From Shigella phage ESH35, in sequence record ON528745: a DNA stretch of 64,000 bases; one strand, 5' to 3'. Of this stretch, positions 15,108-35,978 are shown one piece after another (the first letter of the stretch is position 1; each line of letters opens with the position of its first letter). Both the position numbers and the translations under genes were made by a program. A model generated the notes under the pieces. The model was not told the origin of the DNA, did no database searches, and worked only from the letters and a program-made list of their open reading frames with translations.

Positions 15108-16310
15108 ATGAAAGTATGTATTTTTATGGTTCGAGGTCTTGAAGGTTGTGGTGTAACTAAATTTTCTCTTGAGCAACGTGATTGGTTTATTAAGAATGGT
15201 CATGAAGTAACTTTGGTTTATGCTAAAGATAAATCATTTACTCGTAATTGCGCGCATGATTATAAATCATTTTCAATTCCGGTTTTATTGGCAAAAGAAT
15301 ATGATAAAACACTTAAGCTGGTAAATGATTGTGATATTCTAATTATCAATTCAGTTCCTGCTACTTCGGTTGAAGAAGACACTATTAATAACTATAAAAA
15401 AATTATTGATAACATTAAACCTTCTGTTCGTGTTGTAGTTTATCAACATGACCATTCTTCTCTTTCTTTGCGCCGAAATTTGGGATTAGAAGAAACTGTT
15501 CGTCGAGCTGATGTTATTTTTAGCCATTCTGATAATGGTGATTTTAATAAAGTTCTGATGAAAGAATGGTATCCTGAAACAGTTTCTCTGTTTGATGATA
15601 TTGAAGAAGCACCGACAGTATATAACTTTCAGCCTCCTATGGATATTGCGAAGGTTCGGTCAACCTACTGGAAAGATGTTTCTGAAATTAACATGAATAT
15701 CAACCGTTGGATTGGTCGTACGACCACATGGAAAGGTTTTTATCAGATGTTTGATTTTCATGAAAAACATCTTAAACCTGCAGGACTAAGTACTATTATG
15801 GAAGGTCTGGAACGTTCTCCAGCGTTCATTCCTATTAAAGAAAAAGGAATTCCATACGAGTATTATCGTCTTCATCAAGTAGACCAAATTAAAATTGCTC
15901 CTAATTTGCCAACGCAAATTCTTGACCGTTATGTAAATAGCGAAATGCTTGAACGTATGAGTAAATCCGGATTTGGTTATCAGTTGAGTAAGTTGGATAA
16001 AAAATATCTACAGCGTTCTTTAGAATATACTCATCTCGAGCTTGGTGCATGTGGAACAATTCCGGTATTTTGGAAATCTACTGGCGAAAATTTAAAATTC
16101 CGTGTTGATAATACTCCTTTGACCTCGCATGATAGCGGTATCATTTGGTTTGATGAAAATGATATGGAATCAACATTTGAACGTATTAAAGAACTGTCAT
16201 CTGACCGAGCTCTTTATGACCGTGAGCGAGAAAAAGCATATGAATTTTTGTATCAGCATCAAGATTCAAGCTTCTGCTTTAAAGAACAGTTTGACATTAT
16301 TACAAAATAA
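15108..16310 (+). CDS. a-gt: DNA alpha-glucosyltransferase
   Basis: 400 aa; near-identical to remembered T4 alpha-gt N-terminus MRICIFMARGLEGCGVTKFSLEQRDWFIKNGHEV. Confidence 0.9.
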   Translation: MKVCIFMVRGLEGCGVTKFSLEQRDWFIKNGHEVTLVYAKDKSFTRNCAHDYKSFSIPVLLAKEYDKTLKLVNDCDILIINSVPATSVEEDTINNYKKIIDNIKPSVRVVVYQHDHSSLSLRRNLGLEETVRRADVIFSHSDNGDFNKVLMKEWYPETVSLFDDIEEAPTVYNFQPPMDIAKVRSTYWKDVSEINMNINRWIGRTTTWKGFYQMFDFHEKHLKPAGLSTIMEGLERSPAFIPIKEKGIPYEYYRLHQVDQIKIAPNLPTQILDRYVNSEMLERMSKSGFGYQLSKLDKKYLQRSLEYTHLELGACGTIPVFWKSTGENLKFRVDNTPLTSHDSGIIWFDENDMESTFERIKELSSDRALYDREREKAYEFLYQHQDSSFCFKEQFDIITK

Positions 16311-17953: not shown

Positions 17954-19638
17954 AGAATTTTAAACTAAACCGAGTTAGGTATCAAAATATAATGTCAGTA
18001 GGTGGAAATCCTATTGACATTCAATTAGATAAGGTTCAAAAAACTCTTATTACTGGACGAAATGGCGGTGGTAAGTCTACTATGTTAGAAGCCATCACAT
18101 TTGGGCTTTTTGGCAAGCCATTTCGTGATGTAAAGAAAGGTCAATTAATAAACAGCACAAATAAGAAAGAACTTTTAGTTGAACTGTGGATGGAATATGA
18201 TGAGAAAAAGTACTATATCAAAAGAGGACAAAAACCAAACGTTTTCGAAATCACCGTTAACGGTACACGTCTTAATGAATCTGCCAGCAGTAAAGATTTC
18301 CAAGCAGAATTTGAACAGCTTATCGGAATGTCATATGCCAGTTTCAAGCAGATTGTTGTCCTTGGTACAGCAGGGTATACCCCTTTCATGGGTTTGTCGA
18401 CCCCTGCACGAAGAAAGCTTGTGGAAGACCTGCTTGAGGTAGGAACATTAGCTGAAATGGATAAGCTTAATAAAGCACTAATACGTGAATTAAATTCACA
18501 AAACCAAGTGCTTGATGTTAAAAAAGATAGTATTATCCAACAAATTAAAATATATAATGATAACGTTGAACGCCAGAAAAAATTAACTGGTGACAACCTT
18601 ACTCGTCTTCAAAATATGTATGATGATTTGGCAAAAGAAGCTAGAACGCTAAAATCAGAAATAGAAGAAGCTAATGAAAGATTAGTTAATATTGTTTTAG
18701 ACGAAGACCCGACTGATGCATTTAATAAAATCGGTCAAGAAGCAGTTTTAATTAAATCAAAAATTGACTCGTATAATAAAGTCATTAATATGTATCATGA
18801 AGGTGGATTATGTCCAACCTGCTTGTCACAATTAAGTTCCGGTGATAAAGTTGTTTCTAAAATTAAAGATAAAGTTTCTGAATGTACGCATTCGTTTGAA
18901 CAGCTTTCAACACATCGTGATAATTTAAAAGTTCTTGTTGATGAATACCGAGATAATATTAAAACCCAGCAGTCGTTGGCAAATGATATTCGCAATAAAA
19001 AGCAATCTCTAATCACGACGGTAGATAAAGCTAAAAAAGTTAAAGCAGCTATAGAAAAAGCATCTTCTGAGTTTATTGACCATGCTGATGAAATAGCATT
19101 GCTTCAAGAAGAACTTGATAAAATTGTTAAGACAAAAACTAATTTAGTAATGGAAAAATACCACCGAGGAATTTTGACTGATATGCTCAAAGATTCTGGT
19201 ATTAAAGGTGCTATTATTAAAAAGTACATTCCATTATTTAATAAGCAGATTAACCATTATCTTAAAATAATGGAAGCGGATTATGTGTTTACATTAGATG
19301 AAGAATTTAATGAGACAATTAAATCCCGTGGTCGTGAAGATTTTAGTTATGCTTCATTCAGTCAAGGTGAAAAAGCGCGAATTGATATTGCTCTTTTATT
19401 TACTTGGCGTGATATTGCTGAAAAAGTTTCAGGTGTTAAAATAAGTTGTTTATTTCTTGATGAAGTGTATGACGGTGCATTTGATGCTGAAGGCATTAAA
19501 AATGTAGCTAAAATTTTAGATGGTTTGAAGGATACCAACTTCTTCATAATTTCGCATAAAGACCATGATCCGCAGGATTATGGACAGCATATTAAAATGG
19601 AAAAAGTTGGTAGATTTAGTGTTGCCACTATTAATTAA
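17950..19638 (+). CDS. 46: recombination ATPase subunit gp46 (Rad50/SbcC-like)
   Basis: 562 aa; Walker A GRNGGGKST, central coiled coil with CPTC zinc hook, C-terminal signature/Walker B. Confidence 0.9.
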   Translation: MKNFKLNRVRYQNIMSVGGNPIDIQLDKVQKTLITGRNGGGKSTMLEAITFGLFGKPFRDVKKGQLINSTNKKELLVELWMEYDEKKYYIKRGQKPNVFEITVNGTRLNESASSKDFQAEFEQLIGMSYASFKQIVVLGTAGYTPFMGLSTPARRKLVEDLLEVGTLAEMDKLNKALIRELNSQNQVLDVKKDSIIQQIKIYNDNVERQKKLTGDNLTRLQNMYDDLAKEARTLKSEIEEANERLVNIVLDEDPTDAFNKIGQEAVLIKSKIDSYNKVINMYHEGGLCPTCLSQLSSGDKVVSKIKDKVSECTHSFEQLSTHRDNLKVLVDEYRDNIKTQQSLANDIRNKKQSLITTVDKAKKVKAAIEKASSEFIDHADEIALLQEELDKIVKTKTNLVMEKYHRGILTDMLKDSGIKGAIIKKYIPLFNKQINHYLKIMEADYVFTLDEEFNETIKSRGREDFSYASFSQGEKARIDIALLFTWRDIAEKVSGVKISCLFLDEVYDGAFDAEGIKNVAKILDGLKDTNFFIISHKDHDPQDYGQHIKMEKVGRFSVATIN

Positions 19639-20348
19639 TGTTTGTGCTTACAGTTATCATTATGCCACCTTGATAAATTTCCGAAAGTGGTAACTTTACC
19701 ACAATGGACGCAAGTACCAGTCTTTTCAGTTTTCTTGCGTCCATTTGGATTTTTCTTGCAGAAATTTCTATGCGCTGCGATAACGCATTTCTTGCCTATC
19801 ATTCCGCAGAATTCGCAGGATGTTTCTTCAAGAATGATTGCTTTAAGCCCGTTTGAGATATTATTTCTGTGTTCTTTAGACATCGGTGGTCTAACTTTAG
19901 GATTAGGGTGATTCGGGCAGTTATCAAAATGCCATCGATTCATATTCCCGCTTAATCCGGACTTACCGCAATGTGGACAAGTTAGTCTTGCTTTATTAGC
20001 TACTGCATCAGACATTTTCTTTCGTGTCTCCTGGGAGAATTCTTTATTCTTTTCTATTTCCCAGAGTTTACGACGAATCCAACCGAAAGTTTTATTGTTA
20101 CGTTTAGCGTATTTCGTGGAAACTGTCATCATGTTAGCAGCATAGACTAATTTTGGTTCAGAAGGATAAATTTTTACTAAAAGTTGATGAGCTACATAGT
20201 GCTCTTCCGGTGTTAAATCTACTAAGTTTGAAGCATCATCGCTGCCATTTAAACAGCGTGGTATAATGTGATGAGATTCAGTATAGCAATCAAGTTTTCG
20301 AGATTTAGCATTAGAGATTAACTTTTCATAAATTAGTTTATAATTCAT
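19635..20348 (-). CDS. freestanding HNH homing endonuclease with three C-terminal zinc-finger repeats
   Basis: 237 aa; HNH motif ESHHIIPRCLNGSDDASNLVDLTPEEHYVAH; three CxxCG..RWH..NC modules; opposite strand to all neighbours; TATAAATA late-promoter match about 34 nt upstream. Confidence 0.8.
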   Translation of the reverse strand: MNYKLIYEKLISNAKSRKLDCYTESHHIIPRCLNGSDDASNLVDLTPEEHYVAHQLLVKIYPSEPKLVYAANMMTVSTKYAKRNNKTFGWIRRKLWEIEKNKEFSQETRKKMSDAVANKARLTCPHCGKSGLSGNMNRWHFDNCPNHPNPKVRPPMSKEHRNNISNGLKAIILEETSCEFCGMIGKKCVIAAHRNFCKKNPNGRKKTEKTGTCVHCGKVTTFGNLSRWHNDNCKHKH

Positions 20349-26779: not shown

Positions 26780-26859
26780 TTTTCACAAAACTGTTTACAA
26801 GACTGTTCTTCTGTGGTACTATACAACTATCAACTACTGATACAGATTTGGAGAATAAA
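26780..26859 (+). promoter_or_regulatory. early promoter/leader cassette copy B
   Basis: TTTTCACAAAA UP-like, GTTTACAAGACTGTTCTTCTGTGGTACTATACAACTATCAACTACTGATACAGA leader. Confidence 0.6.
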
Positions 26860-27096
26860 ATGAAAATTGTTATGGGATGCTTAGCAGTTTGTTTAGTTGC
26901 ATTAGTAGCAGTTCCATTTGTTAGTGTTGAAAATGATACTCAACCTGTGATTAAATCTAGCACCGTTATTCACACTAATGGTAAAATATCAGTTAAAATT
27001 GATGATAATCTTCATATGAATACTAATGGAACGTTGGGTGTTCAATTAGGTAATACCTGTGTAAGCACTACTGGAGTAATTACTACTTGTATTTGA
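26860..27096 (+). CDS. small secreted protein (signal peptide)
   Basis: Track ORF 26848 (TTG) trimmed to ATG after GGAGAATAAA; N-terminal MKIVMGCLAVCLVALVAVPFVSV signal-like. Confidence 0.55.
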   Translation: MKIVMGCLAVCLVALVAVPFVSVENDTQPVIKSSTVIHTNGKISVKIDDNLHMNTNGTLGVQLGNTCVSTTGVITTCI

Positions 27097-27106
27097 GGAA
27101 ATTATT

Positions 27107-27487
27107 ATGAAAATCGCTATTTTGGTTATTGCATTAGGTCTTACTGGCTGTGTAGCTCAAGGACCGGTAGTAAATCAATCTGATGTAGGAAAAATTGTAA
27201 ACTGTTCAAGCAAATTTTATAATCCTAATGTTAAGTGTTATAAAGAAGCTCCAAAACAGACAGTAGAACAGATGCAGGCGAATTTTGACGAAGCTATTCG
27301 CCCAGATGAATCTGCTCAAGCATATCGTAATTCAGATGTAATTACACGCGAAGAAAAAATTGAAAACTACTGCGCCGAAATTTGGGCTAATTGGGCTAAT
27401 AATTACCAATGGCGTACTGGTAAAAATGCTCCGATGGAGTATGTAGTGAATTCTTATAATTCATGTGTAAAAAATTTGACTAAGTGA
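27107..27487 (+). CDS. putative lipoprotein
   Basis: 126 aa; N-terminal MKIAILVIALGLTGC lipobox (L-T-G-C). Confidence 0.6.
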   Translation: MKIAILVIALGLTGCVAQGPVVNQSDVGKIVNCSSKFYNPNVKCYKEAPKQTVEQMQANFDEAIRPDESAQAYRNSDVITREEKIENYCAEIWANWANNYQWRTGKNAPMEYVVNSYNSCVKNLTK

Positions 27488-27494
27488 GGAAAAC

Positions 27495-27746
27495 ATGGAA
27501 ACTTTAGTAGCAGGTTCAATTTTTATGGTTTTAGTTTCAGGTGTGTTGGCTATTATTATATACATGCTTCCATGGTTCATCGCCTTGATGCGTGGGTCAA
27601 AATCAACAGTAGGAATCTTTTTCACGTCTTTACTGTTTAACTGGTCAATTATTGGTTGGTTTATTACATTTATTTGGTCAATTGCGGGTGAAACTAAAAA
27701 GTCTGCACAACCAAATCAGGTAATTATCATCAGAGAGAAGGAATGA
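27495..27746 (+). CDS. imm: Imm-like two-helix membrane protein (superinfection immunity)
   Basis: 83 aa (T4 Imm length), two hydrophobic helices, position between 43 and 42. Confidence 0.55.
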   Translation: METLVAGSIFMVLVSGVLAIIIYMLPWFIALMRGSKSTVGIFFTSLLFNWSIIGWFITFIWSIAGETKKSAQPNQVIIIREKE

Positions 27747-27892
27747 AAAGCAAAATTATAGCAGTGTTGCTTTTAATCTTGATGATTATAATAAGTATAT
27801 ACTATAGTGTAACGGTTCCTCTTATGATTCCAACTATTATTTTAGGTTGGGGTTTATTACTGTTACAAGTTAAATATGAATGTATCAATTGA
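27743..27892 (+). CDS. small hydrophobic protein
   Basis: Not in track; about 49-aa ORF read by eye, ATGA overlap with upstream stop; coordinates approximate. Confidence 0.3.
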   Translation: MKSKIIAVLLLILMIIISIYYSVTVPLMIPTIILGWGLLLLQVKYECIN

Positions 27893-27899
27893 GGTTTAA

Positions 27900-28640
27900 A
27901 TGATTAGTGACTCTATGACAGTTGAAGAAATCCGTCTTCATTTGGGGCTTGCATTAAAAGAAAAAGATTTCGTAGTTGATAAAACTGGTGTTAAAACTAT
28001 TGAAATTATTGGCGCATCATTTGTAGCAGATGAACCGTTTATTTTTGGCGCTCTTAATGATGAATACATTCAGCGTGAACTTGAATGGTATAAATCTAAG
28101 AGCTTGTTTGTTAAAGATATTCCAGGTGAAACACCAAAGATTTGGCAGCAGGTAGCATCTTCTAAAGGCGAAATTAACTCGAATTATGGTTGGGCTATCT
28201 GGTCAGAAGATAACTATGCCCAGTATGATATGTGTTTAGCTGAACTTGGTCAAAATCCTGATTCTCGACGTGGTATCATGATTTATACTCGTCCATCCAT
28301 GCAATTTGACTACAATAAAGATGGTATGTCAGATTTCATGTGTACGAATACAGTACAGTACCTGATTCGTGATAAGAAAGTCAATGCAGTAGTAAGCATG
28401 CGTTCAAATGACGTGGTCTTCGGATTCCGTAATGATTATGCATGGCAAAAATACGTATTAGATAAATTAGTATCTGATTTGAATGCAGGTGATTCAACTC
28501 GTCAGTATAAAGCAGGTTCCATTATATGGAATGTCGGGAGCCTTCATGTGTATTCCCGTCATTTTTATTTGGTTGACCATTGGTGGAAAACTGGTGAAAC
28601 ACATATTGCGAAAAAAGATTATAACGGTGAGTGGAAATGA
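27900..28640 (+). CDS. 42: dCMP hydroxymethylase gp42
   Basis: 246 aa (T4 gp42 length), thymidylate-synthase-like, conserved position. Confidence 0.9.
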   Translation: MISDSMTVEEIRLHLGLALKEKDFVVDKTGVKTIEIIGASFVADEPFIFGALNDEYIQRELEWYKSKSLFVKDIPGETPKIWQQVASSKGEINSNYGWAIWSEDNYAQYDMCLAELGQNPDSRRGIMIYTRPSMQFDYNKDGMSDFMCTNTVQYLIRDKKVNAVVSMRSNDVVFGFRNDYAWQKYVLDKLVSDLNAGDSTRQYKAGSIIWNVGSLHVYSRHFYLVDHWWKTGETHIAKKDYNGEWK

Positions 28641-29479
28641 TTCAATTCGTAATTCCAAGCTATCAACGCGTAGGGGCAGTTTCTGCCCTTGATATGTTTC
28701 CATCTGATTATGAACCGCATATTGTAGTACGTGAACACGAAGAAAAAGCTTATTATGACGCTTACGGGTCTAGAGCTAAAATTATAACTATTCCTGATGA
28801 TGTTAACGGAATTGCTGGTACTCGTAAAGCAATTACTGATATGTATGCAGGTCAACGAATTTGGATGATTGATGATGATACTACTATTTGTATGAGTTCA
28901 ATGCGAAAGAAAGATGATCGTCGCTGTGTAGATAAAATTAATCAATTAACTCGTGAACAGTTCTATGAATTGATTCAATACGTTAAAGATGCCATGGATT
29001 GCGGTTATTATCATGGCCATGCTCGTCTACCTATTTTTAAAATTACTTCATCTTGGGGTAATTATCGTGAAAATTCATATGGATTCACGAATACTTGGTA
29101 TGACCTTGGAAAACTTACAACAGAACAAATTGGGTATGGAAAAATTGATTTATGCGAAGATATGTATGCATTTCTCAATTTAATTAATCAAGGTTATCCG
29201 CATTTGGCCTTGTTCAAATATCTGGTTGTATCTGGAAAAGCACAGGCTCCGGGCGGGTGCAGTTCAATTCGTAGTAATTCAAAACATAATAGAGCTCTTG
29301 AGCAAATCAATAGAGAGTTTCCAGAGCAAGCTCGTTGGAAAACTTCTAATATTGAAAAACGAAAATCGTTGGGTGAAGAAGACGAGCCATTAAAGGTTCT
29401 TCGCATGTGTGTTTCGCGCAAAGAAAAATCAGAAGCATTTCATAAGTTTAATGCTATTCATCCAATAGCAGTTGATTAA
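28631..29479 (+). CDS. GT-A-type glycosyltransferase (DxD motif) in the locus where T4 has beta-gt
   Basis: 282 aa; RIWMIDDDTT DxD motif; no similarity to remembered T4 beta-gt. Confidence 0.6.
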   Translation: MEMIQFVIPSYQRVGAVSALDMFPSDYEPHIVVREHEEKAYYDAYGSRAKIITIPDDVNGIAGTRKAITDMYAGQRIWMIDDDTTICMSSMRKKDDRRCVDKINQLTREQFYELIQYVKDAMDCGYYHGHARLPIFKITSSWGNYRENSYGFTNTWYDLGKLTTEQIGYGKIDLCEDMYAFLNLINQGYPHLALFKYLVVSGKAQAPGGCSSIRSNSKHNRALEQINREFPEQARWKTSNIEKRKSLGEEDEPLKVLRMCVSRKEKSEAFHKFNAIHPIAVD

Positions 29480-29556
29480 TGCCTAAATTTATTGTGTTAT
29501 AATTACTCTATCTTTAACCAGTGAGGAAAATATAATGATGCCTATGGAAAAAATGA

Positions 29557-30738
29557 ATGTCTATTGCAGATTTAAAATCCCGTTTGATTAAAGCTTCCAC
29601 TTCTAAAATGACTGCTGAACTGACTACATCTAAATTCTTTAATGAAAAGGATGTAATCCGTACAAAAATCCCAATGCTTAATATTGCTATTTCTGGTGCG
29701 ATTGATGGCGGCATGCAGTCTGGTTTAACTATTTTCGCAGGGCCTTCTAAACACTTTAAATCAAATATGTCTTTGACTATGGTTGCGGCATATTTGAACA
29801 AATATCCTGACGCGGTTTGTCTATTCTATGATAGTGAATTTGGTATTACTCCAGCTTATTTGCGATCTATGGGAGTTGACCCGGAACGAGTAATTCATAC
29901 GCCGATTCAGTCAGTTGAACAGCTGAAAATTGATATGGTGAACCAGCTTGAAGCTATTGAGCGTGGTGAAAAGGTTATTGTATTCATCGACTCAATTGGT
30001 AATATGGCTTCTAAGAAAGAAACGGAAGATGCCTTGAATGAAAAATCTGTGGCAGATATGACTCGTGCTAAATCACTGAAGTCATTATTCCGTATTGTTA
30101 CTCCTTATTTTAGTATTAAAAATATTCCATGTGTTGCAGTTAACCATACAATTGAAACAATTGAAATGTTTAGTAAAACCGTGATGACAGGTGGTACAGG
30201 CGTAATGTATTCGGCTGATACTGTATTCATTATCGGTAAGCGTCAGATTAAAGATGGTTCTGATCTTCAGGGGTATCAATTTGTTCTAAATGTAGAAAAA
30301 TCTCGTACCGTTAAAGAAAAAAGTAAATTCTTTATTGATGTTAAATTTGACGGTGGTATCGATCCTTATTCTGGATTGTTAGATATGGCTCTAGAATTAG
30401 GATTTGTAGTAAAACCTAAAAATGGCTGGTATGCTCGTGAATTTCTTGACGAAGAAACCGGCGAGATGATTCGCGAAGAAAAATCTTGGCGTGCAAAAGA
30501 TACTAACTGCACTACATTCTGGGGTCCTTTATTTAAGCATCAACCATTCCGAGATGCTATTAAACGTGCTTATCAGTTAGGTGCTATTGATAGTAATGAA
30601 ATTGTTGAAGCTGAAGTTGATGAATTGATTAACTCAAAGGTTGAAAAATTTAAATCTCCAGAAAGTAAAAGTAAATCAGCTGCTGATTTAGAAACTGACC
30701 TCGAGCAGTTAAGTGATATGGAAGAATTTAATGAATAA
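29557..30738 (+). CDS. uvsX: recombinase UvsX (RecA-like)
   Basis: 393 aa; MSIADLKSRLIKASTSK... recognised; Walker A GPSKHFKS. Confidence 0.95.
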   Translation: MSIADLKSRLIKASTSKMTAELTTSKFFNEKDVIRTKIPMLNIAISGAIDGGMQSGLTIFAGPSKHFKSNMSLTMVAAYLNKYPDAVCLFYDSEFGITPAYLRSMGVDPERVIHTPIQSVEQLKIDMVNQLEAIERGEKVIVFIDSIGNMASKKETEDALNEKSVADMTRAKSLKSLFRIVTPYFSIKNIPCVAVNHTIETIEMFSKTVMTGGTGVMYSADTVFIIGKRQIKDGSDLQGYQFVLNVEKSRTVKEKSKFFIDVKFDGGIDPYSGLLDMALELGFVVKPKNGWYAREFLDEETGEMIREEKSWRAKDTNCTTFWGPLFKHQPFRDAIKRAYQLGAIDSNEIVEAEVDELINSKVEKFKSPESKSKSAADLETDLEQLSDMEEFNE

Positions 30739-35459: not shown

Positions 35460-35978
35460 ATGCCACATTTCAACGAATGTAGTCAACTGATCGAAGGCGC
35501 TGATAAAGCTCAAAATGAATATTGGGATATTCTCGGTGATGAAAAAGACCCGCTGCAGGTAATGCTTGACATGCAGAAATCTCTGCAGATTCGTTTAGCT
35601 AAAGATAAACCTGAATATAATCGTCATCCTGATGATTTGGCTACTGCCGGTGAAGTTGTTGATTGGCTACGTAATCAGAAAGATTATATTGACGATGAAT
35701 TCCGTGAACTTCTGACATCTCTTGGCGGTATGAGCAATGGCGAAAAAGATGCATCTGCTGTATGGAAGCCTTGGAAAGCTCAACATGGTGAACGCCGTGA
35801 AACTCTGATTACTGATTTGTCTCCACAAGACCAATTGGAAATTAAATTTGAAATGATTGATATTCTCCATTTCGTTCTGAACATGTTCCAAGGTCTTGGT
35901 CTTACAGCTGAAGAAATCTTTAAACTTTATTACCTGAAAAATGCTGAAAATTTCGCACGTCAAGACCGAGGTTATTAA
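35460..35978 (+). CDS. 56: dCTP pyrophosphatase gp56
   Basis: 172 aa; MPHFNEC..IEGADKAQNEYWDILGDEKDPLQVMLDMQ recognised as T4 gp56. Confidence 0.9.
   Translation: MPHFNECSQLIEGADKAQNEYWDILGDEKDPLQVMLDMQKSLQIRLAKDKPEYNRHPDDLATAGEVVDWLRNQKDYIDDEFRELLTSLGGMSNGEKDASAVWKPWKAQHGERRETLITDLSPQDQLEIKFEMIDILHFVLNMFQGLGLTAEEIFKLYYLKNAENFARQDRGY

Follow-up and report, generated by a model that had tools for sequence, protein, structure and literature searches.

Which glycosyltransferase does Shigella phage ESH35 encode between gene 42 and uvsX, where T4 encodes its beta-glucosyltransferase (b-gt), and which sugars would this enzyme place on the phage DNA? The question matters since a T-even phage is open to attack by different host defences according to the sugars on its hydroxymethylcytosine (hmC). 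Bare hmC is the target of McrBC and alpha-glucosyl-hmC that of Brig1, GmrSD/BrxU act on both glucosylated and gentiobiosylated hmC, and BapA cannot strip gentiobiose. We analysed the locus within a window of 64,000 nucleotides from sequence record ON528745. The first-pass annotation of this window had described a 282-residue protein with a GT-A DxD motif and no resemblance to T4 b-gt, and had suggested that it might give the phage the gentiobiosyl pattern of T2 and T6.

The position of the gene between gene 42 and uvsX was confirmed by the list of open reading frames together with matches to PHROG 160 and PHROG 97. Gene 42 (27900-28640, plus strand) encodes a dCMP hydroxymethylase of 246 residues, which supplies the precursor of hmC and shares 99.2% identity with its T2 counterpart. 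The downstream neighbour, uvsX (29557-30738, plus strand; 393 residues), is separated from the glycosyltransferase gene by a 77-nt spacer (29480-29556), and segA is absent. In the six-frame list, the reading frame covers 28631-29479 on the plus strand and counts 282 residues from a GTG at 28631, in agreement with the length first given. This GTG is a mechanical start, lying two codons before an ATG at 28637 that overlaps the stop codon of gene 42 as ATGA and has a GGTGA Shine-Dalgarno-like stretch upstream (the DNA around the start and the gene 42 stop reads GGTGAGTGGAAATGATTCAA). A coding sequence of 843 nt, starting from the matching ATG and encoding 280 residues, is annotated in T2, RB32, NR1, BGP, QOTSP, and TB37. 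On the basis of the ATGA overlap and of these annotations, we dropped the GTG and took 28637-29479 (plus strand; 280 residues plus stop) as the gene, so that the product is more likely to have 280 residues than 282. The reading frame is not a chance one, because 684 phage records encode a protein that covers at least 80% of it.

Within the spacer upstream of uvsX, TGTTATAAT is found at 29495-29503 with TGCCTAAA just before it; by eye, this element resembles a T4-type middle or early promoter and is a candidate promoter for uvsX. A scan of 27400-29700 for promoters and terminators gave counts that were not above those of shuffled controls, and the sole terminator-like hairpin was inside coding sequence.

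Searches against the T2/T6 enzyme and glycosyltransferase families, as the first-pass annotation had proposed, gave a consistent assignment. The protein matches PHROG 842, “beta-glucosyl-HMC-alpha-glucosyltransferase”, with an E-value of 2.7e-89 over profile positions 3-269 of 270, and Pfam PF20691 (TET-associated glycosyltransferase, TAGT) with 39.5 bits over positions 2-205 of 205, which is above the curated cut-off of 27.5 bits for this family. It differs at 7 of 280 residues from the T2 enzyme, whose sequence was obtained by translating three T2 records that proved identical (L003, 3238-4080; L008, 3283-4125, minus strand; L009, 3295-4137, minus strand), and at 9 of 280 residues from the T6 reading frame. 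The enzymes of other Tequatroviruses are equally close, with 5 differences from TB37, 6 each from NR1 and QOTSP, and 10 from BGP; the enzymes of RB32, NR1, QOTSP, and TB37 are distinguished from that of ESH35 by point substitutions only. Over 24 kb, the nearest genomes are RB32 and RB33 (97.1% identity to the window), and at the equivalent position RB32 carries ORF041c, annotated as “similar to T2, T6 b-gluc-a-gluc transferases”. The order of gene 42, the glycosyltransferase gene and uvsX is common to the window, T2, T6, RB32, NR1, QOTSP, TB37, and BGP.

The gene is also widespread. When the protein was compared by tblastn with 50,697 phage records, 688 records matched, of which 471, nearly all from Tequatrovirus, shared at least 95% identity, while about 200 further records at 60–80% identity came from T4-like phages of Klebsiella, Enterobacter, and Citrobacter. 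These results indicate that the gene very probably encodes the T2/T6-type beta-glucosyl-HMC-alpha-glucosyltransferase (ba-GT, also ggt or TAGT; PF20691), which carries out the second-glucose step of the gentiobiosyl-hmC pathway. The likeness to the T2 and T6 enzymes extends to the length of 280 residues, of which 271-273 are identical, to the ATGA overlap with gene 42, to the place between gene 42 and uvsX and the alpha-gt partner, to the DDD, ED, and GGCxxxR motifs, and to the predicted GT-A fold. The substitutions that set the ESH35 protein apart from T2 and T6 are conservative or fall at variable sites.

In T4, the equivalent interval contains the 351-residue b-gt followed by the GIY-YIG homing endonuclease gene segA, neither of which is present in the window. 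We considered whether the ESH35 gene could be a diverged enzyme of the T4 type (GT-B fold, CAZy family GT63), for which only its position in the b-gt slot speaks. BLASTP detected no similarity between the two proteins (best E = 3.2), as the first-pass annotation had expected; T4 b-gt belongs to PHROG 7922, whereas the ESH35 protein matches PHROG 842 only; and the two-Rossmann-domain GT-B fold is absent from the structural model, for which every top Foldseek match is a single-domain GT-A/GT2 enzyme or nucleotidyltransferase. Homology to T4 b-gt is thus rejected by sequence comparison, PHROG assignment, and Foldseek alike, and we regard a T4-type enzyme at this locus as practically out of the question. 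The two proteins share their map position, the UDP-glucose donor, hmC-containing phage DNA as the substrate, and the formation of a beta linkage. In contrast to the ba-GT type, T4 b-gt acts on bare hmC rather than on alpha-glucosyl-hmC, has 351 instead of 280 residues, and adopts the GT-B fold, while the model of the ESH35 enzyme is GT-A-like.

A gene unlike that of T4 is therefore really present at this locus, as had been remarked, but it is not unusual: it represents the usual arrangement in Tequatrovirus, to which T4 with its b-gt is the exception (PMC13216743). The combination of alpha-GT and TAGT is the common pairing, and the alpha plus beta pair of T4 is the rarity (PMC13216743). The surprise expressed in the first-pass annotation arose only because T4 served as the reference.

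We retrieved 342 relatives (clusters) at E <= 0.001 when 1.84 billion representatives were searched exhaustively with HMMER; a word-indexed protein search found 12 clusters only, and the wider family was seen by the exhaustive search. To describe conservation, we used a MAFFT alignment of the ESH35 protein with 145 near-full-length homologues (146 sequences) taken from both protein searches. The RIWMIDDDTT motif, which had been recognised from the letters alone, is present on re-examination and is encoded at 28856-28885. Its core, the DDD of residues 79-81 (28871-28879, plus strand), is near-invariant, with D79 conserved in 99%, D80 in 100%, and D81 in 95% of the 146 sequences, and all three are invariant in alignment A2. 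In the model, DDD follows directly on the strand of residues 74-78, and in GT-A enzymes the DxD metal site is canonically found right after a strand. By analogy with these enzymes, DDD is expected to bind UDP-glucose at its diphosphate, together with a divalent metal.

Three further motifs are conserved. Near the N-terminus, IPSYQR (residues 6-11; 28652-28669, plus strand) ends in an invariant arginine, R11, which is found in 142 of the 142 non-gap sequences, and I6 and P7 are conserved in 92% and 88% of the 146-sequence alignment; judged from GT-A enzymes, this motif probably opens the half that binds the nucleotide sugar, as its first strand and loop. The E174-D175 pair (29156-29161, plus strand; D175 100%, E174 84% of 146 sequences) is a candidate for the catalytic base of an inverting GT2-like enzyme, a putative role suggested by GT2 enzymes. 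The GGCSSIR motif (residues 206-212; 29252-29272, plus strand) is a conserved signature of the family, with G206 at 99%, G207 at 100%, C208 at 83%, and R212 at 97% in the 146 sequences, and R63 is conserved in 94% of the same alignment.

From an alignment of 11 sequences, AlphaFold2 produced a model with a mean pLDDT of 79.5 and a pTM of 0.81, in which residues 131-149 are of low confidence and disordered. The best Foldseek matches in the PDB were the GT-A/GT2 enzymes WrtF, AvpGT, RmlT, K4CP (K4 chondroitin polymerase), TarP, and TarS, with a probability of 1.00 and E-values down to 5e-6, but with modest TM-scores of about 0.4–0.5. When solved structures were searched by sequence, only chance matches (E > 0.5) were obtained, and no TAGT relative was found among them. 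The model thus supports the assignment of a GT-A fold and a GT2-like inverting enzyme, in line with the DxD motif first noted. Like the GT2-family GT-A enzymes TarP, TarS, K4CP, RmlT, and WrtF, the predicted structure shows a DxD metal site that follows strand four, with an acidic base (putatively E174-D175) further along the polypeptide; unlike the ESH35 enzyme, to which they show 11–16% sequence identity, they use teichoic acids or polysaccharides and not DNA as acceptors. A GT-A fold for the T6 TAGT was earlier reported from AlphaFold3 (PMC13216743).

The partners that such an enzyme requires are encoded in the same window. The alpha-glucosyltransferase gene, alpha-gt (15108-16310, plus strand; 400 residues; PHROG 2888, E = 2.6e-222), whose product makes the ba-GT acceptor, is intact, as the first-pass annotation had held: its product aligns over residues 1-400 with T4 alpha-GT (PDB 1XV5) at E = 2.2e-257. 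Gene 56, for the dCTPase/dUTPase, lies at 35460-35978 on the plus strand (PHROG 173, E = 1.5e-46), and the syntenic gene of RB32 is annotated as 56. In T-even phages, hmC enters the DNA at replication, after which alpha-GT adds an alpha-glucose, and in T2 and T6 gentiobiosyl-hmC arises when the second enzyme attaches another glucose through a beta-1,6 bond (reviewed in PMC6024577; PMC13216743).

From the functions known in T4, gp42 of ESH35 would make hydroxymethyl-dCMP and gp56 would remove dCTP, keeping unmodified C out. After replication, alpha-GT would put an alpha-linked glucose on hmC in the DNA. The ba-GT would then bind UDP-alpha-glucose through a metal putatively held by D79-D80-D81, and would transfer this donor's glucose, with inversion, to the 6-OH of the glucose already attached, yielding beta-1,6-glucosyl-alpha-glucosyl (gentiobiosyl) hmC. 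This chemistry agrees with a GT2-like inverting mechanism, since an alpha-configured donor, UDP-alpha-glucose, leads to a beta product. Since alpha-gt is intact and gp56 is present, alpha-glucosyl-hmC should be made and then extended to gentiobiosyl-hmC.

In T6, both the linkage and the need for the gene have been demonstrated by experiment. When ba-gt (g-gt) is deleted from T6, only alpha-glucosyl-hmC remains, sensitivity to the Brig1 glycosylase goes up, and the BapA glucosidase can act (PMC11078745; bioRxiv 10.64898/2026.02.25.707755). By analogy with these deletions and with near-identical phages, the ESH35 enzyme should join glucose by a beta-1,6 linkage to alpha-glucosyl-hmC in the phage DNA. 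A different sugar or acceptor, for example hmC directly, or arabinose as in Mosigvirus, so that no gentiobiose would be made, could be imagined because TAGT homologues occur in phages without alpha- and beta-GT (PMC13216743), and because the family is diverse, as its 342 clusters attest, with a fold that does not give specificity. The ESH35 protein is, however, 97–98% identical to the genetically characterised enzymes of T2 and T6 and is found at the equivalent locus with an intact alpha-gt alongside, and phages whose enzymes differ from it by 5-6 residues show gentiobiose and no other sugar (PMC13390438), which makes a change of sugar or acceptor highly improbable. The gentiobiosyl pattern that had been put forward as a possibility is accordingly supported by family, identity, fold, and motif.

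How much gentiobiose ESH35 would carry is a separate question. The classical gentiobiosyl values are 5% for T2 and 72% for T6; bare hmC amounts to about 25% in each of them (PMC6024577; bioRxiv 10.64898/2026.02.25.707755). Among the Durham Collection Tequatroviruses analysed by HPLC/MS, in which the ba-GT locus is as in the window, NR1, QOTSP, TB37, and four others had about one-third 5-hmdC, a trace of the alpha-glucosyl form, and about two-thirds gentiobiosyl, while BGP, EL, and Geo had 5-hmdC, alpha-glucosyl, and gentiobiosyl forms in the proportion of one, two, and two parts; the beta-glucosyl form was detected in none of these phages (PMC13390438). The quantitative ratio is not one to be read with confidence from sequence, because near-identical enzymes give 5% in T2, about 40% in BGP, EL, and Geo, and about 70% in T6 and NR1. 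In ESH35, the reading frame of ba-GT is intact and every family-invariant residue is kept, Arg11 included. Because the enzyme is closest to the NR1/QOTSP/TB37 type, keeps the invariant residues, and has its private substitutions at variable columns, the DNA of ESH35 is expected to be T6/NR1-like, with most of the glucosylated hmC in the gentiobiosyl form, about one quarter to one third remaining bare hmC, and beta-glucosyl-hmC absent.

The T2 enzyme shows how far activity may depart from overall similarity. It is only 2-3 residues away from those of NR1 and TB37, whose DNA is rich in gentiobiose, yet T2 reaches only its 5%; for the same reason, the ESH35 enzyme could be as weak as that of T2 and leave a DNA with mainly alpha-glucosyl-hmC and a few percent gentiobiosyl-hmC, the more so as it has private substitutions, of which R85C is near DDD. 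We consider such a weak enzyme unlikely, since the sole substitution of T2 at an invariant position is R11H, whereas ESH35 keeps R11, the private substitutions of ESH35 are all in variable columns, and 7 of the 10 Durham Tequatroviruses were T6-like and none T2-like (PMC13390438). The T6/NR1-like pattern therefore remains the expected one for ESH35.

Residue 11 of the T2 enzyme deserves attention on its own. T2 has histidine at this position, where arginine is found in ESH35 (codon 28667-28669), in T6, and in all 142 aligned homologues, and no other family-invariant position is substituted in any of the seven T-even enzymes that were compared. The N-terminal 55 residues of the T2 enzyme, with His11, recur unchanged in only 8 of 686 matching phage records, namely seven T2 records and SV76, whose genome is T2-sized. 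R11H is thus a candidate that may explain, from sequence comparison, the low gentiobiosylation of T2 relative to T6 (5% versus 72%); in the literature that we consulted on T-even glucosylation, we found no mention of R11H as its cause.

A second peculiarity concerns the T6 record MH550421, in which codon 10 of ba-GT is an amber codon (TAG; L001, 2534-2536) where the window has CAA, and the coding sequence is annotated from the internal Met20 with 261 residues. The amber codon is odd in that the gentiobiosyl phenotype is defined by T6; it could be a mutation of the stock or a sequencing error. At residue 11, the ESH35 enzyme thus agrees with T6 (Arg) and departs from T2 (His), and its gene is free of the MH550421 amber.

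Four substitutions are private to ESH35 in the comparison with T2, T6, NR1, QOTSP, TB37, and BGP: T23S (28703-28705), R85C (28889-28891), R92K (28910-28912), and E117K (28985-28987). Each of them affects a column that varies in the family alignment, and R85C lies four residues beyond DDD. These changes, R85C above all, might shift activity or processivity, so that alpha-glucosyl and gentiobiosyl hmC would occur in an intermediate or some other uncommon proportion, with a distinct sensitivity to defences of the Brig1, BapA/Brig3, and GmrSD types. We hold this to be quite improbable and give it less weight, because the family varies at all four sites and the ESH35 enzyme is in other respects that of T6-like phages.

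In ESH35, alpha-GT is accompanied by ba-GT instead of by the beta-GT of T4, a combination that predicts sensitivity to defence and is useful for annotation and for the choice of phages. The effect on modification-dependent defence that the first-pass annotation anticipated is real, but it has been studied experimentally before (PMC11078745; bioRxiv 10.64898/2026.02.25.707755; PMC13390438). The gene, its product, the fold class, its prevalence, and the consequences for defence are all published, so that the assignment is correct but ordinary and adds no new biology.

Several smaller features were seen elsewhere in the window. Two small conserved reading frames, at 26848-27096 and 27743-27892 (both plus strand), flank imm and imm.1. 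The second encodes 49 residues and corresponds to gene 42.1 of RB32 (PHROG 3610), for which the T4 and T6 records examined carry no annotation; the first encodes 82 residues and matches PHROG 4189. Both products look like putative small membrane proteins. Between gene 46 and gene 45.2, a reading frame on the minus strand (19635-20348) encodes a homing endonuclease-like protein of 237 residues (PHROG 655, E = 1.8e-68); it corresponds to ORF054w of RB32, annotated as “similar to mobB”, which is located at the same place in that phage.
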